A stretch of 64,000 nt of DNA, taken from Patescibacteria group bacterium (GTDB taxonomy: Bacteria; Patescibacteriota; Microgenomatia; UBA8517). The notes beneath the pieces were generated by a model, which worked only from the letters and a program-made list of their open reading frames with translations, searched no databases and was not told where the DNA came from. Positions 15,265-38,666 of the stretch are shown one piece after another (position 1 is the first letter of the stretch; the number at the start of each line of letters is the position of its first letter). The stretch spans positions 146,952-210,951 of the forward strand of contig DATDRP010000001.1 in NCBI GenBank assembly GCA_035291665.1, given 5' to 3'. The position numbers were made by a program, and so were the translations under genes.

Positions 15265-15292
15265 AGAACTTTTTGATTTTAGCTTAAAAAGT
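15265..15292 (-). terminator. hairpin + U-tract after recG, immediately 5' of the rpmF start codon
   Basis: Minus strand: GTTCTGAAATTATTTCAGAAATTTTTTTATG (9-bp AT-rich stem, U7) abutting the L32 ATG. Confidence 0.45.
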
Positions 15293-24772: not shown

Positions 24773-24877
24773 ATAAAAAACTCTCCTAACTAATATTAGC
24801 TGGAGAGTTTGGGAAATACAAAAAACCCCGTCCAGCTTATCAAATATTAAAGCTAAAGCCGAGGAGAATTATAATCA
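24773..24877 (-). promoter_or_regulatory. pheS leader with alternative hairpins (SD-sequestering or terminator-like)
   Basis: Minus strand: ...AGCTGGACGGGGTTTTTTGTATTTCCCAAACTCTCCAGCTAATATTAGTTAGGAGAGTTTTTTATATG. CTCTCC/GGAGAG hairpin + U6 contains the only SD (GGAGAG). AGCTGGA can pair alternatively with TCCAGCT, which overlaps the 5' arm. Confidence 0.4.
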
Positions 24878-25222
24878 TTATTTTTCTTTTACGGAAGAAA
24901 CAATCTTTTCGAATGTTGTTGGATCTTTGATTGCAATTTCTGATAATATTTTTCTGTCTAAACCGATTTTTTTATCACCTAAGGCTTTAACGAATTTTGA
25001 ATAATTCATACCATGTTCTCGGACCGCTGCATTGAGTCTTGTGATCCAGAGTTTCCGTAAATTACGTTTCTTATTTTTTCTTCCGATATAAGCATGTTGT
25101 CCAGCATGAAGAACTGCGTCTTTTGCCGATTGTACACGTTTGCTTCTTGCCTGTTTGTACCCGCGGGCAAGTTTAAGTGTTCTTCTGTGGTTCCTTTGTG
25201 ATGGTGATTTAACTCTGGTCAT
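24878..25222 (-). CDS. rplT: 50S ribosomal protein L20
   Basis: MTRVKSPSQRNHRRTLKLARGYKQARSKRVQSAKDAV... Confidence 0.95.
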   Translation of the reverse strand: MTRVKSPSQRNHRRTLKLARGYKQARSKRVQSAKDAVLHAGQHAYIGRKNKKRNLRKLWITRLNAAVREHGMNYSKFVKALGDKKIGLDRKILSEIAIKDPTTFEKIVSSVKEK

Positions 25223-28523: not shown

Positions 28524-30332
28524 TTACTTAAGGATCTTGTTTTTTCTTCTTTCCTCAACTTCATCAAGAATAATTTTTCTGATTCTGACGCTTTTCGGTG
28601 TAACCTCAACAAGTTCCGTGTTGTCAATGTATTCTAAACTTTCTTCGAGGCTCATAGTTTTAGGGGTATTAAAATGCGCAGTCGGACCATCACCTTTTGA
28701 CCTCATGTTCGATAGTTGTTTTTCTTTACAGACATTGACACTCATGTCGCCGCTTCTTGAGTTTTTCCCGACAACCTCACCTTTATAAACTTTTACGGCA
28801 GGACCATAAAATAGTTCTCCCCTATCCTGAACATTAACAAGTCCGTAAAGACGTGTTTCTCCCGTTTCATGGGCAACAAGCGAACCTTGTTCCCTTGTTC
28901 GTTGGAATCCGTCATCCGGAAGGTAGTCAAAAAATGATGTATTTATGATTCCCAATCCTTTAGTGTCTGTTATAAATTCCGATCTGTAACCGATTAGCTC
29001 TTTTGTGGCAACTGTAAATTCCAGATGAGTTACACCTTCAAAGCTTTGCATGTTGATAAGTTTTGCATGCCGTTTACCCATCTTTTCGATGTTATTTCCG
29101 GTATATTCATCGGGTATTTCAATTTCGACGGTTTCGTAAGGGGTCAGTTTTTTACCGTTAACAATTTTATTAATAACTTGAGGTTGGGAAACCTGGAATT
29201 CAAAGCCTTCCCGTCTCATCCTTTCGATAAAAATAGCTAAATGCAGCTCTCCCCGGCCGGAAACCGTCCATGTACCGTTTTCATTATCTTCCACCCGTAA
29301 AGCCACATCTGTTTCAAGTTCTTTATACAACCGGGCTCTTATTTGGCTAGATGTTTTGAATTCACCTTCATACCCGCCAAAAGGAGAATTATTTACCATA
29401 AAAATCATCTTTACAGTCGGCTCTTCAATATCAAGAAGAGGTAAGGCAGAACCAAGTTTCGGATCGGCAATTGTTTCTCCGATTGTCACGTCGGATATTC
29501 CCGAGACGGCAACAATATCACCCGCGAATGCCTGATTAACATACTCTTTTTCTAAGCCTGTAAAAGTAGCTATTGAAGTTATTGTGCAATTTTTTACAAT
29601 CCCTTTTCGATTAATGTGCGCAATAGTCTGGCCTACGCTTATGGTACCGTTAAAAATTTTTCCGATTGCAATTCTACCTTTATAATCGTCTCTGCCTAGC
29701 GTTGTCACCCTCATCTGAAGTGGTTTGTCGGGATTTGATTGCGGACTCGGGATTGTTTTTATAATTTCATCAAAAACAGGCGTGATGTCTTTCATTGAGG
29801 TCATATCCGGCAGTATTCCCGCCAAACCATTCTTTCCGGAGGCATAGATCACCGGAAAATAAGCAGTTTCTTCATTTGAACCCAAATCAATGAATAAATC
29901 GAAAGTTTTATTTACGATCTGTGACGGGTTGGCGTCTTTCTTATCGATCTTATTGACAACAACGATGATCTTAAGTCCCATTTTTAATGCCTGTTTCAGA
30001 ACAAACCTCGTCTGAGGCATTGGACCTTCTTTTGCATCAACCAAAAGAAGAGCTCCATCAGCCATTGAAAGAACCCGTTCGACTTCTCCCCCAAAGTCAG
30101 CGTGACCCGGTGTGTCAATGATATTAATTTTGTTATTTTTATAAACGACTGAGGCGTTCTTTGAGAAAATTGTTATACCGCGTTCTCTTTCGATCTCATT
30201 TGAGTCCATAATTTGGTTTGTTTCTGAGAGCGTTTTATCCAAGTGTGTATGCGACTGGCGCAAAAGCGCATCCACAAGGGTAGTTTTACCGTGGTCGACA
30301 TGTGCAATAATAGCGACATTTTTTATATCCAT
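28524..30332 (-). CDS. typA: translational GTPase TypA/BipA
   Basis: G1 AIIAHVDHGKTTL, EF-G-like domains; start moved to MDIKNVAII (30332) from the track's 30440, whose N-extension is non-conserved. Confidence 0.9.
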   Translation of the reverse strand: MDIKNVAIIAHVDHGKTTLVDALLRQSHTHLDKTLSETNQIMDSNEIERERGITIFSKNASVVYKNNKINIIDTPGHADFGGEVERVLSMADGALLLVDAKEGPMPQTRFVLKQALKMGLKIIVVVNKIDKKDANPSQIVNKTFDLFIDLGSNEETAYFPVIYASGKNGLAGILPDMTSMKDITPVFDEIIKTIPSPQSNPDKPLQMRVTTLGRDDYKGRIAIGKIFNGTISVGQTIAHINRKGIVKNCTITSIATFTGLEKEYVNQAFAGDIVAVSGISDVTIGETIADPKLGSALPLLDIEEPTVKMIFMVNNSPFGGYEGEFKTSSQIRARLYKELETDVALRVEDNENGTWTVSGRGELHLAIFIERMRREGFEFQVSQPQVINKIVNGKKLTPYETVEIEIPDEYTGNNIEKMGKRHAKLINMQSFEGVTHLEFTVATKELIGYRSEFITDTKGLGIINTSFFDYLPDDGFQRTREQGSLVAHETGETRLYGLVNVQDRGELFYGPAVKVYKGEVVGKNSRSGDMSVNVCKEKQLSNMRSKGDGPTAHFNTPKTMSLEESLEYIDNTELVEVTPKSVRIRKIILDEVEERRKNKILK

Positions 30333-30505
30333 AATTGGAAAAGTATAGTGAAAAATTCGAATCAAAAAAAATGCCGAGCTAATCTCGGCTTGTTTTCTTA
30401 ACCTAAACGATATTTTACTCTTATTTAAGCTAATTAACAATTAAATTGGTTTTTCATAAACTCCTTTTACATATTTCACTTAATCTTGTAAAATATCACT
30501 CACTA

Positions 30506-30579
30506 GGACGGTTAGCTCAGTTGGCTAGAGCGTTTCTTTGACGTAGAAAAGGTCAGGGGTTCGAGTCCCTTACCGTCCA
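30506..30579 (+). tRNA. tRNA-Val (anticodon GAC)
   Basis: Cloverleaf folds: acceptor GGACGGT/ACCGTCC, anticodon loop TTGACGT, T-loop TTCGAGT. Confidence 0.85.
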
Positions 30580-30602
30580 CATCTCACATACGTTCGATGT
30601 GA

Positions 30603-30893
30603 ACTTGGGATTTACTGTATAATGTCAAAGAATGGTTTGTATACATCCTAAAATGCCGAGACAATACATTCTATACAGGATTAACTACAAATCTTAATCG
30701 AAGAGTTCAGCAACATACTTTAGGTGTATTTTTAAATTATACAAAATCAAGAAGACCGATTAAATTAGTATATTTTGAAATTTTTAATGATAAGCATGTT
30801 GCTGCATTACGAGAAAAACAAATAAAAAATTACAGCCAAAAGAAGAAAGGATTATTAATTTCCATGTTTACTTCGAAGATACAAAGTACCTGA
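30603..30893 (+). pseudogene. GIY-YIG nuclease family gene lacking an in-frame start (degenerate or non-canonical start)
   Basis: Open frame between tRNA-Val and tRNA-Ala translates ...EWFVYILKCRDNTFYTGLTTNLNRRVQQHTLGVFLNYTKSRRPIKLVYFEIFNDKHVAALREKQIKNY..., a clear GIY-YIG (UPF0213-like) signature. The only nearby ATG (30632) is out of frame by 1 nt. Confidence 0.55.
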
Positions 30894-30896
30894 GAA

Positions 30897-30970
30897 GGGC
30901 CTGTAGCTCAATTGGCCAGAGCACTTGGCTGGCAGTCAAGGGGTTGGGGGTTCAAATCCCCCCGGGTCCA
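30897..30970 (+). tRNA. tRNA-Ala (anticodon GGC)
   Basis: Acceptor GGGCCTG/CGGGTCC with the G3:U70 alanine identity pair; anticodon loop CTGGCAG; T-arm GGGGG-TTCAAAT-CCCCC. Confidence 0.85.
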
Positions 30971-31000
30971 CCCAGTAAGATTCATTTTAATAAGAAGAGT

Positions 31001-31279
31001 TTAGAGATTGGTGTTTATTTTCACTCTTTTTCGAAGCATATTACCGTCAGCATCAATTACGGGTTCTCCATCTTCATATACATAAGTGATTACTAATGTA
31101 TCTCTCCCATCGTTTCCCGCTCTATTTCCAGTACCATGCCCGGATTTACGGTGGCCTCTGACGTCGATAATTAATTCTGAGTCGGGATTATCTTCAATTT
31201 CTTCCAGTACTATCTTCTCTGCCGATTTAAGATAATGTTTAGCATTAGATTGTGAAAGGATCGATTCTGTTGATGTCAT
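31001..31279 (-). CDS. hypothetical protein (92 aa)
   Basis: No recognised motif; Gly/His-rich stretch RGHRKSGHGTGNRAGNDGRD; downstream of the HNH-like gene. Confidence 0.4.
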   Translation of the reverse strand: MTSTESILSQSNAKHYLKSAEKIVLEEIEDNPDSELIIDVRGHRKSGHGTGNRAGNDGRDTLVITYVYEDGEPVIDADGNMLRKRVKINTNL

Positions 31280-31312
31280 AGGCTTACAATTTTAGCGGAG
31301 AAACTGAAAAAA

Positions 31313-31759
31313 TCAAATTTCTGATAATTTTAAATCTCCGATTTTTACAACCCAATCGTATTTTGATCGTCTTTCGAACATTTTTAAAGCTTTTTGATAG
31401 TCGCTTTTGAAAAATTCTTTCCTACATTTATTGACAGTGCAATAGTGTTTTACTAATACTTCCCAGTCAATATCTCCTCTATCTGACTGGATTTTTGCAA
31501 AACCAATATGCTTGATTGCATGACAAAGCTCGCAAAGAGCGATGAATCCGGTTAAAGTTTGAGTGTGATCTTCGTCATCAAATTTCCAAATTTCATGACA
31601 TTGAAGTTTCCTCTTGGTTTTGCAAATTCCACACTGCAACTTATAAAGTTTGTATACTTTTTTACGAAGCTTATCCCACTCAGATACCCCCATCATGTTT
31701 CTAATATTATTGTTCCAAGTTGTATCAGGAAGTAGGTCGAAAGTTAATTTCATTATCAA
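31313..31759 (-). CDS. HNH-type zinc-finger nuclease-like protein
   Basis: CGICKTKRKLQCHEIW ... LCELCHAIKH: paired CxxC with His residues in HNH-like spacing. Confidence 0.45.
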   Translation of the reverse strand: MIMKLTFDLLPDTTWNNNIRNMMGVSEWDKLRKKVYKLYKLQCGICKTKRKLQCHEIWKFDDEDHTQTLTGFIALCELCHAIKHIGFAKIQSDRGDIDWEVLVKHYCTVNKCRKEFFKSDYQKALKMFERRSKYDWVVKIGDLKLSEI

Positions 31760-31804
31760 GATACTTTTATGCTTGAATTTTTAGCAAAGATTTTTACGGA
31801 AAGA

Positions 31805-32581
31805 TTACCATTTTTCATAATTATCTTCTATGAAATTGAAATGTATATTAAATTTGTTTTGAAGATGATTTCCAAGAGCAATAACTCCCCATTTTTCTGT
31901 ATTATAATGTCCTGCTGCAACGTATACGATTCCCAGTTCATTGCATAATGCGATAACTCCTTCATCAATGTTGCCCGACACATAGCAATCAATATTGTTA
32001 AATTTTGTTTCATAAAAATATTCAGATCTTGCTCCACCCCCGCTTATTACTGAAATATTATTAACACTCCTTACATTTCTTGGCCAGATTATTTCTAAAG
32101 GTTTAATATTAAGACAACTTTTTAAATATTTCTCCAATCCATATTTATCTGAAATAGCTTTGGGTAGCTTGCCGGAATAGCCAATCTTTATTCCATGATA
32201 TTCACCGAATTTTTCAACATGCTTCAGTTTAAGCAATTTAACCAATTGCGTATTATTTCCGTATATTTCATTAACATCGAGCGGAATATGATAGGAAATA
32301 TAAGAGATATTATTTTCATTTAAGAAATTTATTCTGTCTTTAAATGAATATAAAAACGGTTGGGACTCTATTTTCAAAAGTCCATGATGGGCGAGTATTA
32401 AATCTGGTTTATTTTTCAATGCTTTTTGAAATACATTAATATTGGGTGAAACAATTCCGGTTATTTTTGATATTTCACTGTTATTTGATACGAGTTCGAG
32501 ACCATTGACAAAAGATCTTTCAGGGATACTACCTTGATTCAAAATCTTATCCAGATATTTCGTTAATTTAAATATATCCAT
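31805..32581 (-). CDS. Nif3-family dinuclear-metal protein (GTP cyclohydrolase 1 type 2 homolog)
   Basis: LILAHHGLL ... YISYHIPLD ... VAAGHYNTEKWG: conserved His clusters of the NIF3/YqfO family. Confidence 0.75.
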   Translation of the reverse strand: MDIFKLTKYLDKILNQGSIPERSFVNGLELVSNNSEISKITGIVSPNINVFQKALKNKPDLILAHHGLLKIESQPFLYSFKDRINFLNENNISYISYHIPLDVNEIYGNNTQLVKLLKLKHVEKFGEYHGIKIGYSGKLPKAISDKYGLEKYLKSCLNIKPLEIIWPRNVRSVNNISVISGGGARSEYFYETKFNNIDCYVSGNIDEGVIALCNELGIVYVAAGHYNTEKWGVIALGNHLQNKFNIHFNFIEDNYEKW

Positions 32582-33810
32582 TAATTTAATAATAATACTG
32601 ATTGGTCTCTCATTGGATAACTGTTTTCAGGTTTCGCATATACAGCACTAAACTGATCAATTGATATATTACTTTTTCTTATTGCATTATCAAGGGTTCG
32701 GGTTCGATCTTCAAAAGATTGCATTACTAAAGTGCAATTGTCAATCCTTGCTCTTTCAATGATATATGCTAAAACATTTTCTCCGGTGAAATATCTTCGG
32801 TGCCCATTGTGCTTGAATAATTCGCCGACAAACTTTTTGGGCTTTACTGCCTCATCCAGCCTTTTATGATAATTTATTGGAGAAATATTACTTTTTAGTA
32901 TTTCATCAACGCATCTCGAAGTTATTTCAGTGGGTTCGTAGACAGTAAAAATATCCCAGATGTCTTCTTTTTGAATACCTTTTTCGGTTAGTAAGCGATT
33001 GAAAAAAGCATTAGGATCACTTCTTTTAATGGGTTCTTTATTATCCATTCCCAGATCCTTTTTAATAGCTGAGTAGTCTCTGTTTTCCATAGCAGAGCAA
33101 ATCATTTTATTTAATTTATTACCGGCTTCAATTAAGGTTAAAGACCCTTCAGCGTATTCGGTAAGTAACGTGTTTAGTATGTAGGTTTCAAATCTTTTTA
33201 CAATCCTATTCCTTAATTCTTTTGGAAACACTAAATCGAACGCATCTTGGTCAATTTTTTTACCAGCATATAAATTATATTTAATTTCATTTCCCGATGT
33301 ACTGGGTGGAACGGAAACAACTTTAGTTTCAATTGAATTTCTTTTAAAATGTAGATCGAGAACGTGTTGGTCAAATTCTGCAAAAGAATCTGCAAGAGAC
33401 ATTTGAGCCCTGGTTGTATTGTGATTTAGAGAAAAATTCAGATATCCCAGACTATGTATAAATTTATTAAATACCGCAGGTTTAGTCTCCACTTCGTCCG
33501 CAGGTTTTGTAAAATCTACTGAAGCGCTTTCTTCGCCAGTAATTAATTCGCAAAAACTACTTTGAATTGAATTTTGATCGCGCTCAGATAAACCGTTTGT
33601 CAGATTAATAAAATATTTTGATACAGGTACGGCCGGAATCGGAACAACGATGAATTTATTCGGTGTTCCGTAGGCTTTTATAGTGTCTACTGCACTGAAA
33701 ACATTATTAGCTGTAATTGGACCCCTGCGCGATCCAGGCACGAAATATACCGGTTTTCCTTGTATACTTTCTTTACCCCCTTCTTCAGTAAACAAATGTT
33801 CGTGTCCCAT
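32581..33810 (-). CDS. hypothetical protein (409 aa), co-directional with the aromatic operon
   Basis: No recognisable family; start codon directly preceded by a hairpin + U-tract and its own TTGACA-17-TAAAAT promoter. Confidence 0.5.
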   Translation of the reverse strand: MGHEHLFTEEGGKESIQGKPVYFVPGSRRGPITANNVFSAVDTIKAYGTPNKFIVVPIPAVPVSKYFINLTNGLSERDQNSIQSSFCELITGEESASVDFTKPADEVETKPAVFNKFIHSLGYLNFSLNHNTTRAQMSLADSFAEFDQHVLDLHFKRNSIETKVVSVPPSTSGNEIKYNLYAGKKIDQDAFDLVFPKELRNRIVKRFETYILNTLLTEYAEGSLTLIEAGNKLNKMICSAMENRDYSAIKKDLGMDNKEPIKRSDPNAFFNRLLTEKGIQKEDIWDIFTVYEPTEITSRCVDEILKSNISPINYHKRLDEAVKPKKFVGELFKHNGHRRYFTGENVLAYIIERARIDNCTLVMQSFEDRTRTLDNAIRKSNISIDQFSAVYAKPENSYPMRDQSVLLLN

Positions 33811-34001
33811 ATAACTAAAAAACCTCTCGGGTGAGAGGTTTGTTCTTTAAAAAAATGGTTTATAAAATATTTAATCCCTCACCATATTAACCCCTCCTCG
33901 AATGAGGAGGCTAATAATGCTGAGCAAAACTTGCTCAGTGGTGAGAAAAAGATTCTTCATATCTTAGCAAGTATTTTAAGCAAAATTTAGATTACTGTCA
34001 A
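33811..34001 (-). promoter_or_regulatory. promoter plus highly structured leader of the 409-aa gene
   Basis: Minus strand: TTGACA(34001..33996)-17-TAAAAT(33978..33973). Three-way structure CUCACC[CUGAGCAA-guu-UUGCUCAG][CCUCCUC-auuc-GAGGAGG]GGUGAG. Then AAACCUCUC-accc-GAGAGGUUU + U-tract ends 9 nt before the ATG and sequesters the only SD-like GAGAGG. Confidence 0.5.
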
Positions 34002-34016
34002 GAAAATGTTATAGGA

Positions 34017-35336
34017 TTATATTCTTTCTACGACAAGGAAACTGGTGTAATTTTCTTTGGCATCCTGAAGATTATCCTCAACAATTCTTAAATCATAAAT
34101 TTGAGCTAATATTTTACTTCCCATGACAGCTGTATTTTTCCCCAACGTCCTTTCTGATAGTCGTTTTGCCACAAGTGCATGGTCAACTAATTTTCCTTTT
34201 CCTGATATTCTTTTCAGATAAGGATATTTTTCATCTAATGTCCTTTGGCATTGCGCAAAAACCTGAGGATGAGACATGATTGAATCAACTTCTCCAAAAG
34301 TTGCGTCTGATCGAATCATTAGAGCATGAGATATTTTTATTGAAAATTGATCAGTTATATTAAATTTGTATTTTGACATTGCCTCAATACTTTCTCCCAC
34401 CACCCCGCCTAATGAATTATGTATAGCAAACTGACCAAGGTCTATGCTTCCTTCATGTAGTGCCTTGAGGACTGCACCGGATGTATAAAGGAATTTAATT
34501 TTATATTTTTTATCGGTTTCTCTCTCGAAATAATATTTGGCTGCTTCTTCATTAAAACTACCCCTACCTCCTTGTATACCATAAGTGACGAAGTTCTTAT
34601 TGACTGCTTTTGGAAGCAGTTTGTTATAAAGCGAATCATATTTTTCACCTATTTTTATGCGCATTTCTTTTGTATAGGAGTTGTAATTTTGTAAATTTAA
34701 AAATAATTGCATGGTGTCATTACATGTTTGATTTTTGACCTCAAGTAGTTTTTTGGTTCCAAGAGTGTCAATTTCAGAAGGTGATAAACCGAAAGAATCA
34801 AGTAGTCTTCCGATAAAATGTGTTAATCCCTGAGAATTTGCAGCTATTTTGTCGTGTTTTTGCGGAGACATCTCAATCACTTTAAGTCCCTTTTGGGTAA
34901 AGTAATTTTTCCAAAACTTGAAATTATTATTGTTAGATAAAAAACGATTTAAAACGATTGGCAGATTTGAAAATCCACCTTTACTGCTATCTGGACCAAA
35001 CATTGGATGTGTAAGGATTGCCTGTGTTTTTAATCCCTTCAAATGTTTTGTTAAAATTTTAGCCGGATGCATTTTTACAGACAGAACATCTATGAGCAAG
35101 TGATTATCTGAGAAGTATGATTTGTGGGCAGAAATAACATTCTCAAATTCATCTATAGGAACTGCAATAAATATTATTTCCGATTTATATACTTCTTTAA
35201 TATTTTCTGCAATCTTTAAACCATCCTTATGGGCAATCACTTTTTTGTCAAAGACAATTACATCAAAGTCAGATTTCAATAAACGATATAAAACCTGACC
35301 AAATCTTCCATAACCCACAATGCTTATTTTTTTCAT
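34017..35336 (-). CDS. bifunctional prephenate dehydrogenase / prephenate dehydratase (TyrA-PheA fusion, no ACT domain)
   Basis: N-terminal NAD-binding ISIVGYGRFGQ and HPMFGP (prephenate dehydrogenase). C-terminal PDT catalytic domain: TYGIQGGRGSFNEEAA, SHPQVFAQC, TSFLVV. Confidence 0.8.
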   Translation of the reverse strand: MKKISIVGYGRFGQVLYRLLKSDFDVIVFDKKVIAHKDGLKIAENIKEVYKSEIIFIAVPIDEFENVISAHKSYFSDNHLLIDVLSVKMHPAKILTKHLKGLKTQAILTHPMFGPDSSKGGFSNLPIVLNRFLSNNNNFKFWKNYFTQKGLKVIEMSPQKHDKIAANSQGLTHFIGRLLDSFGLSPSEIDTLGTKKLLEVKNQTCNDTMQLFLNLQNYNSYTKEMRIKIGEKYDSLYNKLLPKAVNKNFVTYGIQGGRGSFNEEAAKYYFERETDKKYKIKFLYTSGAVLKALHEGSIDLGQFAIHNSLGGVVGESIEAMSKYKFNITDQFSIKISHALMIRSDATFGEVDSIMSHPQVFAQCQRTLDEKYPYLKRISGKGKLVDHALVAKRLSERTLGKNTAVMGSKILAQIYDLRIVEDNLQDAKENYTSFLVVERI

Positions 35337-35626
35337 AAGTCATTAATTTCTTCTATTATCTGACTTTCAATTGTCAATGATTCCTCATGAAGTCTTTCGA
35401 AAATGTCCAAAATTAATTTCTCAGACAATCCCAATTTTCTACCAATTTCAATTCTATTTTTTATGACCTTATCCCATCTGTTTTGATCCAATGGTATTAT
35501 TTTATTCTCTTTTTTTAAAATCCCAACTTTTTTGACAAGCTCAATACGTTTCGAAATTATAGAAACTAAAGCCACGTCGTTTTCATCAATTTGAATCCGC
35601 AAATCATTTAATATTTCTCTTCCCAT
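35333..35626 (-). CDS. chorismate mutase (AroQ class)
   Basis: 97 aa; LRIQIDENDVALVSIISKRIELVKKVG...RWDKV: AroQ helical CM. Confidence 0.8.
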   Translation of the reverse strand: MGREILNDLRIQIDENDVALVSIISKRIELVKKVGILKKENKIIPLDQNRWDKVIKNRIEIGRKLGLSEKLILDIFERLHEESLTIESQIIEEINDL

Positions 35627-35629
35627 ATT

Positions 35630-36604
35630 TTAAGATAAATTTTTTTGCTCGACAAAATCGGGTGATCTTAAATTTCTGAATCTTGCCAAATCCTGAAGCA
35701 GGCACCTCAACTCGTCATGTGTTATATGTTGTTCGGAATCTGTGATAGATTCTCCGGCTTCGATTAAAAGTCCGTCATAAAGCCAATTATTACCATCTTT
35801 CATTCTCATTACTTTTATTGATTCATCAACGATTTTGTTTCTCATGTTTGGTCCACAGCTGTGGCTGGGGTCAAAAAATAATCGAGCTCCGATTACAGAT
35901 CTTTTTGTATGTCTGGCAATTTCATGGACAGGTGCACTTCGCCATTCACCTTTATCTGGTGAATCGATACCTCTGTGGATAAATATCAATCTTTCATTAT
36001 TTTGCGCAAAACTTGCCTGTCCGCTCCATTGTCTTTGAAGTGCGCTTCCACTATATTTTACAGGATCATTCGACATATCAAGAGAAATATCAAGGTTTTT
36101 AGCGTTTTTCACTCCCTGAAACCAGATGTTTCTCCTTGCATATTCTCCCATCGTAAGTTGAGCATATCCAAGACCCTCAACCGAAGGCTGCCAGATTAAG
36201 AGTTTTTCTGGTTGGATTCTTCCCTCATATTGTGGCAATTGAACACTCGGCATCATTATCTCAGTTGCAATTAGAAGTCCTGTTTCTTTGACTATTTTTA
36301 TTCCTGCCTCAACGCTCGGCGGTGGTGCAGTGGGAAGCGGGTTTTTAAGGACAATGATATTTTCTTTACATTCAAAATAATAATTAAAATCTGCCCCCAT
36401 CGGACTTTTTCCATCTAAATTAGTTCGGGATTTAAGTCCAACTACTCGTGTACCCCACAAACATGTTTGGATTTGACCTTTTATATTTCTAACCTTAATT
36501 TCCGAAAGATCATAGTATCCGGATAGATTTCTCACGAGTTCCAAATCTACCGAACATGGACCGGCTATAACTTCTGTGTCAAATTGATTTAATGATTCTG
36601 ACAT
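35630..36604 (-). CDS. 3-deoxy-7-phosphoheptulonate (DAHP) synthase, class I-beta (KDO8PS-like)
   Basis: VIAGPCSVD and FDPSHS motifs of the I-beta DAHPS/KDO8PS family; first gene of the aromatic operon. Confidence 0.8.
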   Translation of the reverse strand: MSESLNQFDTEVIAGPCSVDLELVRNLSGYYDLSEIKVRNIKGQIQTCLWGTRVVGLKSRTNLDGKSPMGADFNYYFECKENIIVLKNPLPTAPPPSVEAGIKIVKETGLLIATEIMMPSVQLPQYEGRIQPEKLLIWQPSVEGLGYAQLTMGEYARRNIWFQGVKNAKNLDISLDMSNDPVKYSGSALQRQWSGQASFAQNNERLIFIHRGIDSPDKGEWRSAPVHEIARHTKRSVIGARLFFDPSHSCGPNMRNKIVDESIKVMRMKDGNNWLYDGLLIEAGESITDSEQHITHDELRCLLQDLARFRNLRSPDFVEQKNLS

Positions 36605-36615
36605 ATTTATACATT

Positions 36616-36639
36616 AAAAAACCCCGACTATGCGGGGTT
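36616..36639 (-). terminator. attenuator terminator 2
   Basis: AACCCCG-CATAGT-CGGGGTT + T6; its 5' arm CCCCGCAT is also complementary to upstream ATGCGGGG (36670..36663). Confidence 0.7.
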
Positions 36640-36669
36640 GGTATTTTTACATAGAGAATTTTCCCCGCA

Positions 36670-36726
36670 TTAGTTAGGATAAAAATAATAAAAACTAAAC
36701 AGATTGTTTTTGTAAATATTGTTCAT
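36670..36726 (-). CDS. leader peptide 2 (MNNIYKNNLFSFYYFYPN)
   Basis: 18 codons, 7 Phe/Tyr; SD AGGAGGG 13 nt upstream; stop TAA overlaps the 5' strand of the antiterminator (TAATGCGGGG). Confidence 0.6.
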   Translation of the reverse strand: MNNIYKNNLFSFYYFYPN

Positions 36727-36840
36727 ACTTCAATAGCACCCTCCTAATTTTCACACTTGGCTTTTTGGGAACTATTCGTTCACGCCTCGTGCCAAAATTG
36801 GTCGGAGGGTTATGTACTATTTGAAAATTACAAAGTACAT

Positions 36841-36867
36841 AAAAAAACCTCCTAACTCTAGGAGGTT
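36841..36867 (-). terminator. attenuator terminator 1
   Basis: AACCTCCTA-GAGT-TAGGAGGTT followed by T7 (read on the minus strand). Confidence 0.7.
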
Positions 36868-36920
36868 GATTTTCTGGGATTTATTTAATTAAACCAAATA
36901 AACTCGCCCCCTAGGGTTTC

Positions 36921-36965
36921 TTAGGAGGTAAAGTAAAAATAAAATTTTACCGAATTTATTTTCAT
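36921..36965 (-). CDS. leader peptide 1 (MKINSVKFYFYFTS)
   Basis: 14 codons with FYFYF run; stop UAA lies inside segment 1 (ACCUCCUAAG); starts ~10 nt after the -10 box (leaderless-like). Confidence 0.5.
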   Translation of the reverse strand: MKINSVKFYFYFTS

Positions 36966-37029
36966 ATTAGAGGTTATTATAGATATTTATAAAACTATTG
37001 TCAATAATTCAAAAGCTATTCAAAATATA

Positions 37030-37674
37030 CTATCCTGCTGATCTTGTTACGTAATGTTCGCCGGAAAGCAAAAACTTTGCTCCGTGTTTTTTGTATGAGC
37101 TCCAATAATTTTTCTTTTGTGCCCTTTTATTAACTGAAAAGAGCCAATTGGTGGACTCCTGAATGTTCTTTCTGAATGAAATGATAAAACTCAAAAGTTT
37201 TTCAAAAAATACAACGTGATAAATTCCAGGTTCAATTGGTGCTTGCATCGATGCAATTTCAACTTGGGTACCGAGACCTGATGTGGTTTTTGCCAATAAT
37301 ATTACCTCATCAGTAATTGCTTTCAGCTGCATTCGAAGTTCGTTTGTCTTTTTTTGAATCATCAATGATTCTTCCTGATGAAGTCGTCTTTCAAAAGTTA
37401 TTTGTTTTTGTAATTTATCTCTTTCTTCTTTTTGGGCTTTGGCAATGGGATTGAACTCCAATGATTCACCCGGATGCAGTTCGCCGGAATAATTTGGTGC
37501 ACTTTGCGGACCGAATAATTGATCCATAAAATCACCCGGCATCTTGTCAAAAAGGTCTTGTTTGATCGATTTTGCTGTTGATGTGCCCACGTCTTTTAGG
37601 GATTCCAAAACATTCGGTTGATTTTGACTTTTTTGGCCTTTCCCCGATTTGCTCTTAGGATTGTTGTTAGGCAT
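37030..37674 (-). CDS. hypothetical protein with coiled-coil
   Basis: 214 aa; Lys/Gln-rich N-terminus, central coiled coil; no recognised motif. Confidence 0.5.
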   Translation of the reverse strand: MPNNNPKSKSGKGQKSQNQPNVLESLKDVGTSTAKSIKQDLFDKMPGDFMDQLFGPQSAPNYSGELHPGESLEFNPIAKAQKEERDKLQKQITFERRLHQEESLMIQKKTNELRMQLKAITDEVILLAKTTSGLGTQVEIASMQAPIEPGIYHVVFFEKLLSFIISFRKNIQESTNWLFSVNKRAQKKNYWSSYKKHGAKFLLSGEHYVTRSAG

Positions 37675-37754
37675 ATAATTATCCTATAATAACTTCAACG
37701 GTGATGATATTCTACCAAAAAATTATATATTTTACAACCGGACCTAAGTACAAA

Positions 37755-38666
37755 TTATACTAATGAAGTCAGGAAATCAAGCGCTTTTCTTCTTTGCAGT
37801 ATGACTCTGATCACAGATCTTTGTTCGGGAGTTTCTCCACTATTTTTCAGATTGGGGTCTGAATGGCTTGCCTTGATTGCCTCGTCTATGTCTTTATCAT
37901 CAACATTTAATGATTCATTTTTAGCTATTTTTTCCAGTATAAGTTCGAGTCTTATAGCTTTCTCGGATTGATCTTTATAATCACTTCGTATTGATTGTGC
38001 GGTTTTTCCGATTGAATTGAGGTATGAATCTAGTGTTAGACCCAATTTTTCGGTCTGTTCAAGAAGCTTTGATAATCTTGTGTTTACTTCTTCATCAATA
38101 AGAACGGTTGGGACAATAAAATTTATTGTTTTAAGTAAAATATTTATAACTTTTTGTTCTTTTTCCTGACGGGAAAGCCCTTTATCGTCAACGTCCTTAT
38201 TTTTTCCGGGAGTCCATATTTTACCTGAAGCGAGTTCGGTTTTAATGGGATCCTTATAGTTCCCCAATTCAAATTCCGTTATTTGACAAGTTGTCGCACG
38301 GATTTGCCACGTTTCATTTTGTTGTGCGTTAATGAGTTCGAATTTAGGAAAAACAGCCGGTCGGATTTTTTCTGACATAATGACTTCGTTAAACATTTGA
38401 GGCAATAGTCCCGAAAGCGTCTGTTGAATTAATTTATCCCTGGATACCGCCGATTCAATTTTATCAAGCGGGGCTTTTCCTTTTCTGAATCCGGCGATTT
38501 CAAGATCTTTACCCAATTCATGAAGAGCTTTTGTTTTATTTTCTTCAACCGTCTTCCAGGGTATATTGAATGTAATTTGAATCGTTCCGTCATCCTGTTT
38601 GGCTACAATCGGTTTAAAATCCTGATTTACGGACTTTTTCTGATTTTTTATGTTTGTTTTTGCCAT
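37755..38666 (-). CDS. tig: trigger factor (short form)
   Basis: Ribosome-binding signature GFRKGKAP in the N-domain; 303 aa, shorter than canonical ~430 aa. Confidence 0.75.
   Translation of the reverse strand: MAKTNIKNQKKSVNQDFKPIVAKQDDGTIQITFNIPWKTVEENKTKALHELGKDLEIAGFRKGKAPLDKIESAVSRDKLIQQTLSGLLPQMFNEVIMSEKIRPAVFPKFELINAQQNETWQIRATTCQITEFELGNYKDPIKTELASGKIWTPGKNKDVDDKGLSRQEKEQKVINILLKTINFIVPTVLIDEEVNTRLSKLLEQTEKLGLTLDSYLNSIGKTAQSIRSDYKDQSEKAIRLELILEKIAKNESLNVDDKDIDEAIKASHSDPNLKNSGETPEQRSVIRVILQRRKALDFLTSLV

Follow-up and report, generated by a model that had tools for sequence, protein, structure and literature searches.

What is the long, structured spacer that separates tyrA/pheA from the gene behind it, and what would it do for that gene? 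In the window, by which we mean the whole 64-kb stretch of DNA analyzed, the spacer occupies positions 33811 to 34001 of the minus strand, between the tyrA/pheA stop codon and the ATG of orf409 (32581 to 33810, minus strand), a gene encoding 409 amino acids with no Pfam match. The sequence-only reading had placed here a promoter, a three-way junction, and a hairpin with a U-tract before the 409-amino-acid gene, and all of these were found, every element lying on the minus strand at the coordinates first given. The promoter is of the sigma-70 type (33973 to 34001, minus strand), with TTGACA (34001-33996) and TAAAAT (33978-33973) separated by 17 nt, an 11/12 match whose -35 box starts 16 nt beyond the tyrA/pheA stop codon. 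Seven sites on the two strands of the window match at 11/12 or better, compared with 2.6 expected, and four of the seven lie wholly in intergenic DNA. Twelve nucleotides past the -10 box begins an open reading frame (33871 to 33960, minus strand) of 29 codons plus TAA, MKNLFLTTEQVLLSIISLLIRGGVNMVRD, which has no SD sequence and traverses the junction. The 12-nt spacing implies a 5' untranslated region of 3 to 5 nt, which is not a strict 5'-AUG; the transcript would be near-leaderless if transcription starts at the usual distance from the -10 box.

Folding of positions 33968-33805 of the minus strand with RNAfold returned both the three-way junction and the terminator, with an energy of -56.6 kcal/mol, against a shuffle mean of -32.7 (sd, 3.6; z = -6.56), and none of 200 shuffles was as stable. 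The outer helix of the junction, CUCACC/GGUGAG, joins segment 1 (UUCUCACC; 33940 to 33947, minus strand), which lies in leader codons 5 to 7 and forms the 5' strand of this anti-antiterminator, to segment 2 (GGUGAGGG; 33876 to 33883, minus strand). Within it stand hairpins P2 (CUGAGCAA-guu-UUGCUCAG; 33920 to 33938, minus strand), an insertion in the leader ORF, and P3 (CCUCCUC-auuc-GAGGAGG; 33893 to 33910, minus strand). The intrinsic terminator (33814 to 33841, minus strand) consists of AAACCUCUC-accc-GAGAGGUUU (33841-33820), three more U residues (to 33817), and AGU; its stem has 9 bp, and it ends 9 nt before the orf409 ATG at 33810. Segment 2 is a switch strand, with either segment 1 or segment 3 as its partner, and segment 3 (CUCUCACC; 33830 to 33837, minus strand) comprises terminator 5' arm and loop. 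The segment 2:segment 3 antiterminator is an 8-bp duplex of -13.9 kcal/mol, the segment 1:segment 2 duplex has an energy of -13.8 kcal/mol, and the terminator hairpin has one of -11.7 kcal/mol. Both the ORF through the junction and the pairing of segment 2 with the terminator had been missed in the sequence-only reading. The effect of a ribosome was modeled by folding only the RNA 3' of it; a fold of the full leader with a blocked footprint was set aside, as helices were still drawn around the ribosome. With the A site at codons 2 to 22, the RNA folded 3' of the ribosome always sequestered segment 3, and with the ribosome at codon 25 or beyond, or at the stop codon, the antiterminator was impossible.

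We consider it likely that the spacer is a ribosome-mediated transcription attenuator, probably one sensing the supply of Leu/Ile/Val, with orf409 and probably also the NIF3 gene that overlaps it under its control. The start of this NIF3/DUF34 gene (31805-32581, minus strand) overlaps the orf409 stop codon, and the two genes therefore probably form one operon. Attenuator features present in the spacer are a conserved short ORF, a terminator before the gene, a mutually exclusive 2:3 antiterminator, a 1:2 helix whose 5' strand lies inside the ORF, and a stop codon (33873-33871, minus strand, just 3' of segment 2) at which a terminating ribosome would cover segment 2. From these features we infer that the promoter gives a near-leaderless transcript and that a hydrophobic, Leu/Ile/Val-rich peptide of 29 residues is translated from it. 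On an untranslated leader, segments 1 and 2 would pair and close the junction, the terminator (segments 3:4) would form, and transcription would stop 9 nt before orf409. A ribosome that reaches the stop codon should lead to the same termination outcome, because segment 2 is then covered. A ribosome stalled in the ORF would mask segment 1 and leave segment 2 free to pair with segment 3 before the 3' arm of the terminator is made, and polymerase would enter orf409-NIF3. The stalling signal would most likely be a shortage of charged tRNAs reading Leu, Ile, or Val within codons 11 to 20. A terminator scan found none between the tyrA/pheA stop codon and the leader promoter, and the same hairpin should therefore also end the transcripts of the aromatic operon, on which the leader AUG would be internal and without an SD.

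A DNA pattern search recovered 38 further metagenome stretches with the leader, giving 31 distinct copies in all, and a UGGUGRRRR box is shared by L082-L084, the close homologues, and by another 27 distinct copies from metagenomes. All 31 distinct copies contain an equivalent ATG-initiated ORF, compared with 6.8 expected from dinucleotide shuffles, and the remaining two frames hold 50 and 44 stops. The ORF starts 52 to 64 nt upstream of the box, except in five copies that have an earlier in-frame ATG or an insertion, and stops between -10 and +20 relative to it. A promoter match of at least 9/12 precedes the ORF in 22 of the 31, its -10 box ending 7 to 12 nt before the leader ATG. A covariance model scored the window at 65.7 bits (E = 2e-10) with the window left out of its construction; the covariance-model searches covered the retrieved loci. 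In the alignment of 40 copies, nothing but the pairing segments, an ATG, and a stop codon is conserved. The leaders always share the orientation of a gene and lie immediately upstream of it, and their upstream contexts differ widely, in agreement with the earlier claim that the leader regulates in cis, from a promoter of its own and by way of a conditional terminator. A repeat or mobile element was rejected as an explanation, since a BLAST search with the spacer as query turned up no second copy in the window and the family pattern had no match in viral contigs.

The outer helix is paired in 83.5 to 85.9% of cells (22 or 40 copies), compared with 51 to 64% in slid controls, and 6 to 8 of its 10 pairs are changed on both sides. 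In P3, which like the outer helix is conserved and covarying, all six pairs show both-sided changes, e.g., GUCCUC/GAGGAC, GCCUC/GAGGC, CCUU/AAGG, and UUGCC/GGCAA; CCUCCUC and GAGGAGG, which the sequence-only reading had cast as anti-SD and SD-like partners, are simply the two arms of this hairpin. For the terminated structure as a whole, pairing reaches 87.5% (slid controls, 51 to 64%), and both-sided changes affect 17 of 24 pairs. The antiterminator formed by segments 2 and 3 is paired in 89.8% of cells over 40 copies (51 to 56% when slid) and the terminator helix in 98% across the family, figures to be read with the covariation in the helices of segments 2 to 4 being limited and partly ascertained, because the pattern that recovered 31 of the 40 aligned copies fixes the cores of these segments. 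Both mutually exclusive pairings are thus kept in 84 to 90% of cells. Of the 30 distinct copies with a three-base loop, 29 have loop bases, left free in the search pattern, that can pair with UGG. In the examined alignments, the window and L118 (GAGCGA-gcu-UUGCUC) are the sole copies with P2; on this alignment evidence it is an insertion and not a conserved feature of the family.

The peptide of the window is modestly enriched in branched-chain residues (L+I+V, 12/28; p = 0.03) and, unlike the trp, his, and phe leaders, has no single-codon run. Relatives of its target gene strengthen the connection to these amino acids. orf409, a protein with a HUP-type fold, had no match in PHROGs or PADLOC, and a word-indexed protein search returned no homologue of it; an exhaustive HMMER search gave five remote homologues at 23 to 31% identity, and a profile search added nothing beyond this set. 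Each of the five is preceded by a homologous leader that combines a short ORF rich in L and I with a terminator and a switch-strand box, which reads UGGUG in three of them. Together with the window, these six orf409-family peptides contain L+I at 49 of 127 residues against a background of 18.7% (p = 1.4e-7). Over the whole family, composition is a hydrophobic mix (L, 15%; I, 13%; V, 7%; F, 7%), and some subfamilies with the same segment design have peptides rich in His/Tyr/Met/Trp, e.g., MKLKSHITYMYPHFWRSF; the signal therefore need not be one amino acid. At 80 tyrA/pheA-related loci (51 to 68% identity), neither orf409 nor NIF3 lies downstream, and these loci therefore yielded no orthologous spacer. 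The genes downstream of family copies are diverse and mostly unannotated, peptidases M19 and M20 being among the targets, and Pfam searches had no match in nine of nine tested. Many target genes lie in a variable region bounded by a DUF5660 gene and bipA, each packed with its own leader as a separate cassette. A target that makes or supplies the sensed amino acid is typical of the attenuator class and is not required by the mechanism; orf409 and NIF3 are not branched-chain amino-acid biosynthesis genes.

Other leaders in the window and its relatives belong to the same general class. Peptides of the FYFYF type precede DAHP synthase in relatives and, in tandem, in the window, where leader 1 encodes MKINSVKFYFYFTS (36965-36921, minus strand) and leader 2 encodes MNNIYKNNLFSFYYFYPN (36726-36670, minus strand). 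Nine relatives have F/Y/W-rich peptides at aromatic-operon loci, four of them no more than 150 nt upstream of a DAHP-synthase match, and F+Y+W make up 30% of residues when these nine leaders are taken together with two from other loci and the two of the window. A Leu-rich peptide (..NLLGLLLLALLLGAFLGRSF) stands directly before a LeuA-like gene whose product has HMGL-like and HCS_D2 domains. The sequence-only reading had held that a hairpin and U-run directly before an AUG recur at rpmF, pheS, and DAHP synthase, and might be a lineage-wide expression strategy. At DAHP synthase the hairpin (36639-36616, minus strand) is indeed a terminator, that of a Phe/Tyr leader-peptide attenuator, and the rplT-pheS spacer holds two tandem terminator-like hairpins (z = -3.1). 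The rpmF example is unconvincing, its stem being AU-only and its region no better folded than shuffles (z = -1.2). What stands of the wider idea is that the lineage employs many leader-peptide attenuators, with terminators that abut the gene under their control.

Could an element of the same architecture answer to a different signal? A general slowdown of translation, or a drug or metabolite that stalls the ribosome through the nascent peptide, would fit the hydrophobic mixtures without single-codon runs, the subfamilies that keep the segments with very different peptides, and the diverse, unannotated genes downstream. The erm, cat, and ABC-F leaders are antibiotic responsive, control resistance genes, and need the drug and a specific nascent peptide; the ErmCL peptide (MGIFSIFVISTVHYQPNKK) is likewise hydrophobic. 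Those leaders share with ours a short hydrophobic ORF in which the proposed stalling remodels downstream hairpins, but neither a resistance gene nor a conserved stalling motif is evident here, and no resistance-type gene was seen downstream of the family leaders. The six orf409-family leaders, moreover, are very divergent and all L/I-rich, sister leaders in the same genomes are amino-acid specific (F/Y/W at aromatic loci, Leu-rich before the LeuA-like gene), and M19 and M20 peptidases as targets fit amino-acid supply, so that we regard a different signal as rather unlikely. Less probable still is a stand-alone small gene, either for a hydrophobic micropeptide or for a small RNA of about 150 nt, with orf409 expressed by leaky, unswitched read-through. 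A strong promoter and a strong terminator do mark off a unit of some 150 nt, the family conserves both the ORF and the hydrophobicity of its peptide, and RNAs and leader peptides derived from attenuators can act in trans (rnTrpL/peTrpL; PMC7298713). Such a gene would leave unexplained why segment 2 is complementary both to segment 1 and to the terminator 5' arm and loop, and the loop bases pair although they were free in the search pattern; a gene in the same orientation always follows the unit directly, and a 17-residue peptide is too short for a membrane span. We therefore think it improbable, while noting that a small gene and attenuation can both hold and are not exclusive. A type I toxin was rejected, the peptide being too short and always in cis with a downstream gene.

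The sequence-only reading had favored a riboswitch or an RNA thermometer, and neither fared well against the family. That the junction is a metabolite or ion aptamer with the terminator as its expression platform is suggested by the great stability of the junction beside the terminator and by the alternative pairing of the P1 3' strand with the latter. We judge it very improbable: the junction, lacking P2 in nearly all members, is not a conserved feature; the 40 aligned copies show no pocket of conserved unpaired nucleotides, nonhelical conservation amounting to an ATG and a stop in one frame; and the sister elements have obvious regulatory codons. Rfam gave no family match for the whole window at gathering thresholds or for nine typical family loci at E values up to 1, and for the spacer at E values up to 10 it gave only subthreshold, terminator-driven matches. 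The best of these are Phe_leader (RF01859; 26.9 bits, gathering threshold of 55) and His_leader (RF00514; 27.9 bits, threshold of 49), proteobacterial families of which the element is not a member, the alignment being mostly driven by the terminator. A T-box, a purine-like three-way-junction aptamer, and a hammerhead were rejected, with no matching core and no Rfam signal. That the hairpins merely constitute the terminator or 3' untranslated region of the tyrA/pheA operon, which has no other terminator after it, or a thermometer or SD mask for orf409, whose only SD-like sequence is the GAGAGG in the 3' arm, is scarcely credible. The genes that homologous leaders follow include DUF5660, NIF3, and a peptidase gene, and the close copies with the UGGUGRRRR box never follow tyrA/pheA. 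The distance from terminator to start codon in homologues ranges from 4 to 128 nt, several have their own SD-like sequence (GGAGGTG or GGGGGTG) 3' of the terminator hairpin, and the GAGAGG of the window stands 12 nt away from its ATG. Thermometers that melt are also unlike this hairpin, with its strong stem of 9 bp and its U-tract.

The attenuator that we favor has well-known counterparts in the ilvGMEDA, ilvBN, and leu operons of Escherichia coli, which are governed by multivalent Ile/Leu/Val leader-peptide attenuation. It resembles them in its short ORF rich in branched-chain codons, in the covering of segment 2 by a ribosome at the stop codon, and in the mutually exclusive 1:2, 2:3, and 3:4 hairpins, the last being a terminator just upstream of the first structural gene. 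It differs in its unrelated sequence, in being near-leaderless where theirs are SD-led, in an extra hairpin inside 1:2 (P3, plus P2 in the window), in a mostly A-rich spacer of about 40 nt between segments 2 and 3, and in its targets, an ORFan and NIF3 instead of ilv or leu genes. The first DAHP-synthase leader is like pheL in peptide and layout, and the DAHP-synthase leader reached 31.7 bits against Phe_leader (threshold of 55). The general model of leader-peptide attenuation has been summarized together with a case in Deinococcus deserti, in which a transcript starting at its 5'-AUG is translated into a leader peptide with a predicted role in controlling transcription attenuation (PMC4007540). 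In Corynebacterium glutamicum, small leader peptides occur in the 5' untranslated regions of trpE, leuA, ilvB, and aroF (PMC3890552, PMC10272879, PMC11857589). These cases come from other phyla, have unrelated sequences, and target amino-acid biosynthesis or tRNA synthetase genes; their transcription start sites were mapped, whereas that of our leader is deduced from the promoter.

The mechanism itself is textbook, and the advance lies in scope and targets, not in principle. How CPR/Patescibacteria regulate their genes is scarcely known. A review from 2024 brings up riboswitches in these bacteria only as possible engineering tools (PMC11665869), and our search of the literature on leader peptides and attenuation in CPR/Patescibacteria found nothing relevant and no paper on this leader. 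The family is apparently undescribed, common in ultrasmall (CPR/Microgenomates) bacteria, and placed before many genes of unknown function. Our findings suggest that a Microgenomates lineage relies heavily on classical ribosome-sensing attenuators, which appear to run from near-leaderless transcripts. A related hydrophobic-peptide leader before many unannotated genes gives a testable hint, pointing to amino-acid or translation stress, for orf409-NIF3 and other orphans, and the leader is a compact native switch that might serve as a genetic tool. A broader and more speculative possibility, which we hold to be unlikely, is that the leader with its UGGUGAGAG box is the common switch of an unseen stress or starvation regulon in Microgenomates, in which dozens of unannotated genes may be switched on together by ribosome stalling on a short, hydrophobic, leaderless ORF. 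Its signal may then not be a single amino acid; stress on translation in general, a compound from the host, and an antibiotic that acts through the nascent peptide are examples of what it might be. If this were true, the leader would be a handle for the function of CPR "dark matter" proteins, including orf409-NIF3.

On the minus strand of the window, DAHP synthase (36604-35630), a chorismate mutase, a TyrA/PheA fusion (35336-34017), a 409-aa ORF without a Pfam match (orf409; 33810-32581) and a NIF3/DUF34 protein (32581-31805) follow one another. A 206-nt spacer separates tyrA/pheA from orf409, and every element that the sequence-only reading had listed there is present: the promoter TTGACA-17-TAAAAT at 34001-33973 (11/12 match), a CUCACC/GGUGAG helix around CUGAGCAA-guu-UUGCUCAG and CCUCCUC-auuc-GAGGAGG, and a terminator hairpin, AAACCUCUC-accc-GAGAGGUUU, after which come three more U; 9 nt separate the end of its stem from the ATG. 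RNAfold recovered the same fold for the spacer at -56.6 kcal/mol, with a z-score of -6.56 against dinucleotide shuffles. Promoter matches this good are rare: counting both strands, the 64 kb contain 7 (2.6 expected), 4 of them fully intergenic. The observation is thereby confirmed.

That reading missed two features. The first is an ORF: an ATG 12 nt 3' of the -10 box opens a 29-codon frame, MKNLFLTTEQVLLSIISLLIRGGVNMVRD, which crosses the entire junction and reaches its stop immediately 3' of GGUGAGGG. The second is that GGUGAGGG, which forms the outer helix as its 3' strand, is complementary also to CUCUCACC, the terminator's 5' arm and loop. The resulting duplexes are isoenergetic, with -13.8 kcal/mol for segments 1:2 (anti-antiterminator) and -13.9 kcal/mol for segments 2:3 (antiterminator); the terminator, segments 3:4, has -11.7 kcal/mol. 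This 1:2, 2:3, 3:4 layout is the same as that of a classical attenuator.

The organism belongs to the Microgenomates within the CPR; the window encodes a DUF5660 protein, and its best TyrA/PheA matches (up to 68% identity) are labeled Woesebacteria, Pacebacteria or Daviesbacteria. Neither orf409 nor NIF3 was found downstream of tyrA/pheA in 80 loci of related genomes, and a word-indexed search yielded no orf409 homologues. An exhaustive search of 1.84 billion representatives gave five remote homologues (23 to 31% identity), and all five have a homologous leader upstream, encoding the peptides MSRNLILNTLSLLLLKD (locus L082), MNKTLIIINIIAIRQMA (L083), MKAHISINIIILIKGI (L084), MVLSFVLSIITLALLIGERGSMVEG (L085) and MGSLFLFITILFILIW... 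(L086, where the peptide continues and a 268-aa gene separates leader and homologue). The leaders of L082 to L084 also contain a small hairpin, a UGGUGRRRR box (the switch strand, segment 2) and the terminator ACCUCUCAYYACGAGAGGU6-7; in L085 and L086 the layout is kept with different switch-strand and terminator sequences. NIF3 again follows the homologue in L083 and L084. The gene order in L083 is tig, DUF5660, a 68-aa ORF, leader, orf406, NIF3, a second leader, a small ORF and bipA, and in the window tig and DUF5660 lie on the upstream side and bipA (28524-30440) on the downstream side, from which it follows that in the window the aromatic operon was inserted into the tig-DUF5660/bipA region. 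This region is variable (window 28524-38666; L083; L090), and in relatives it holds an M20 peptidase, small Cys/His proteins or orf409-NIF3, each with its own leader copy. After NIF3 the window encodes a 148-aa HNH endonuclease (PHROG 5200, E = 4e-32) and a 92-aa ORFan (31001-31759 and 30506-30970), which adjoin two opposite-strand tRNA genes and may be a small mobile insertion.

The pattern TGGTGRRRR-N25-50-CCTCTCA-N2-3-CGAGAGGTTT matched 38 metagenome stretches, which with the window and L082 to L084 give 31 distinct copies of the leader. A typical copy reads TTGACA-N17/18-TAnAAT, 7 to 12 nt, ATG AGA AAT ATT TCT CTC ACC ATT ATT ..., GUCCUC-uuuauu-GAGGRC, UAR, about 5 nt, UGGUGAGAG, a mostly A-rich spacer of about 40 nt and AACCUCUCACCACGAGAGGUUUUUU. 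Independent evidence comes from the parts that the pattern left unconstrained. All 31 copies have an ATG-initiated ORF with its stop at -10 to +20 relative to the box, versus 6.8 expected from dinucleotide shuffles; it starts 52 to 64 nt 5' of the box, except in five copies, where an in-frame ATG occurs earlier or sequence is inserted, and the other two frames contain 50 and 44 stops. A promoter matching at least 9/12 is found in 22 copies, placed such that the transcript would start at the ATG or within a few nucleotides of it. Segment 1 pairs with the box in 85.9% of cells of a plain MAFFT alignment, versus 51 to 60% when slid, and both sides have changed in 6 of the 10 pairs; hairpin P3 likewise covaries (5 or 6 of 6 pairs). 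The terminator loop, free in the pattern, could base-pair with the box's UGG in 29 of the 30 distinct copies whose loop has three bases (CCA, CUA, UCA or CCG). A covariance model of 22 copies, the window left out, scored the window leader at 65.7 bits (E = 2e-10). In the model alignment of 40 sequences, pairing is 87.5% for the terminated structure (17 of 24 pairs changed on both sides) and 89.8% for the antiterminator, versus 51 to 64% in slid controls, with the segment 2 to 4 cores fixed by the pattern in 31 of the 40 sequences, so that the terminator itself varies little. The window's P2 hairpin is an insertion found otherwise only in L118, so the three-way junction does not characterize the family.

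The model also matches the window at 36960-36841 (36.5 bits), within the 425-nt DAHP synthase leader on the minus strand. There, a 12/12 promoter (37004-36976) is followed after 10 nt by an ORF, MKINSVKFYFYFTS (36965-36921), a first terminator (36867-36841), the small ORF MYFVIFK (36840-36817), another ORF, MNNIYKNNLFSFYYFYPN, with an AGGAGG Shine-Dalgarno (SD) sequence (36726-36670), and GCGGGG ... CCCCGC-auagu-CGGGG-U6 (36668-36616), ending 11 nt before the DAHP synthase ATG. Judged from its sequence, this leader is a putative tandem of two Phe/Tyr leader-peptide attenuators, with regulatory codons that are unmistakable; against Rfam Phe_leader it scores 31.7 bits (threshold, 55). Equivalent F/Y/W-rich peptides occur in the aromatic-operon loci of nine relatives, in four at most 150 nt upstream of a DAHP-synthase match, and L003 repeats the tandem arrangement. 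When the relatives' leaders are pooled with two from other loci and the two of the window, F, Y and W make up 30% of residues. Among other sister leaders, one with a Leu-rich peptide (..NLLGLLLLALLLGAFLGRSF) lies immediately upstream of a LeuA-like gene (HMGL-like + HCS_D2), one with a Phe-rich peptide precedes an M19 dipeptidase, and a third precedes an M20 peptidase. With so many leader-peptide-type attenuators in the lineage, the same reading is natural for the orf409 leader.

Two further groups of leaders were observed. One sub-family (L090 210-348, L120 6440-6578, L093 2466-2619, L113 2289-2430) keeps the segment 1/2/3 design with a different terminator (AACUCUCACCU...GAGAGUU) and encodes peptides rich in His, Tyr, Met and Trp, of which MKLKSHITYMYPHFWRSF is an example; an M20 peptidase follows it in L090. 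The other lies directly 3' of tyrA/pheA in four relatives (L053 7506-7643, L016 7354-7488, L042 7343-7483, L009 7469-7602), encodes a MSKTISIDLKRVENLVSLLIVLLAGAFLGGLFR-like peptide of 32 to 34 residues, long enough for a transmembrane helix, and precedes small unannotated proteins, with a Leu-richer version before a LeuA-like gene in L042.

The RNA 3' of the ribosome was folded as it would be before the terminator 3' arm is transcribed. A-site positions at codons 2 to 22 left segment 3 sequestered every time, usually by GGUGAGGG and at codons 15 to 18 by P3's 3' arm, which is then freed. A ribosome that has reached codon 25 or beyond, or the stop, covers segment 2 and makes the antiterminator impossible; when no ribosome is present, segment 2 is held in the junction (-35.7 kcal/mol). 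From these foldings we infer, beyond sequence, energy and conservation, that a stall inside the leader ORF would give read-through, and that a leader untranslated or fully translated would give termination. A ribosome stalled at the hydrophobic codons, immediately 3' of segment 1, would mask that segment, and L and I account for 49 of 127 residues in six orf409-family peptides (background, 18.7%; p = 1.4e-7), the window peptide's own enrichment being modest (p = 0.03). On this codon placement and enrichment we favor Leu/Ile/Val supply as the signal, with real uncertainty because of the His/Tyr/Met/Trp-rich sub-families and the unannotated targets.

As for the proposed masking of the SD sequence by the hairpin, GAGAGG lies 12 nt from the ATG, the terminator-to-start distance ranges from 4 to 128 nt in the family, and several copies have a separate downstream SD-like sequence; any masking would be no more than a side effect at single loci. 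The spacing in L083 is 7 nt. The hairpin pattern was also said to recur before pheS and rpmF. The rplT-pheS spacer (24773-24880, minus strand) does contain two terminator-like hairpins in tandem, both with a U6 tract behind them (z = -3.1), and a 12-codon ORF, MIIILLGFSFNI, overlapping the rplT stop (TAATG), and there is complementarity between AGCUGG of the first hairpin and the loop sequence CCAGCU of the second; it may be a pheS attenuator. At rpmF (15265-15292, minus strand), the AU-rich stem of 7 to 8 bp has two G-C pairs and its region folds no better than shuffles (z = -1.2), which is weak evidence for recurrence.

An AlphaFold model of orf409 from a six-sequence alignment is confident (pLDDT 82.8, pTM 0.83), and Foldseek found nothing significant in the PDB. 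In an Rfam scan, which the sequence-only reading had suggested, no family matched the leader. None of the literature searched links attenuation or leader peptides to Patescibacteria, CPR or Microgenomates, and a 2024 review names riboswitches solely as tools. Leaderless leader peptides are known in Deinococcus (PMC4007540) and leader peptides of amino-acid operons in Corynebacterium (PMC3890552), so the mechanism is known, and the novelty lies in the leader family, the phylum and the targets.
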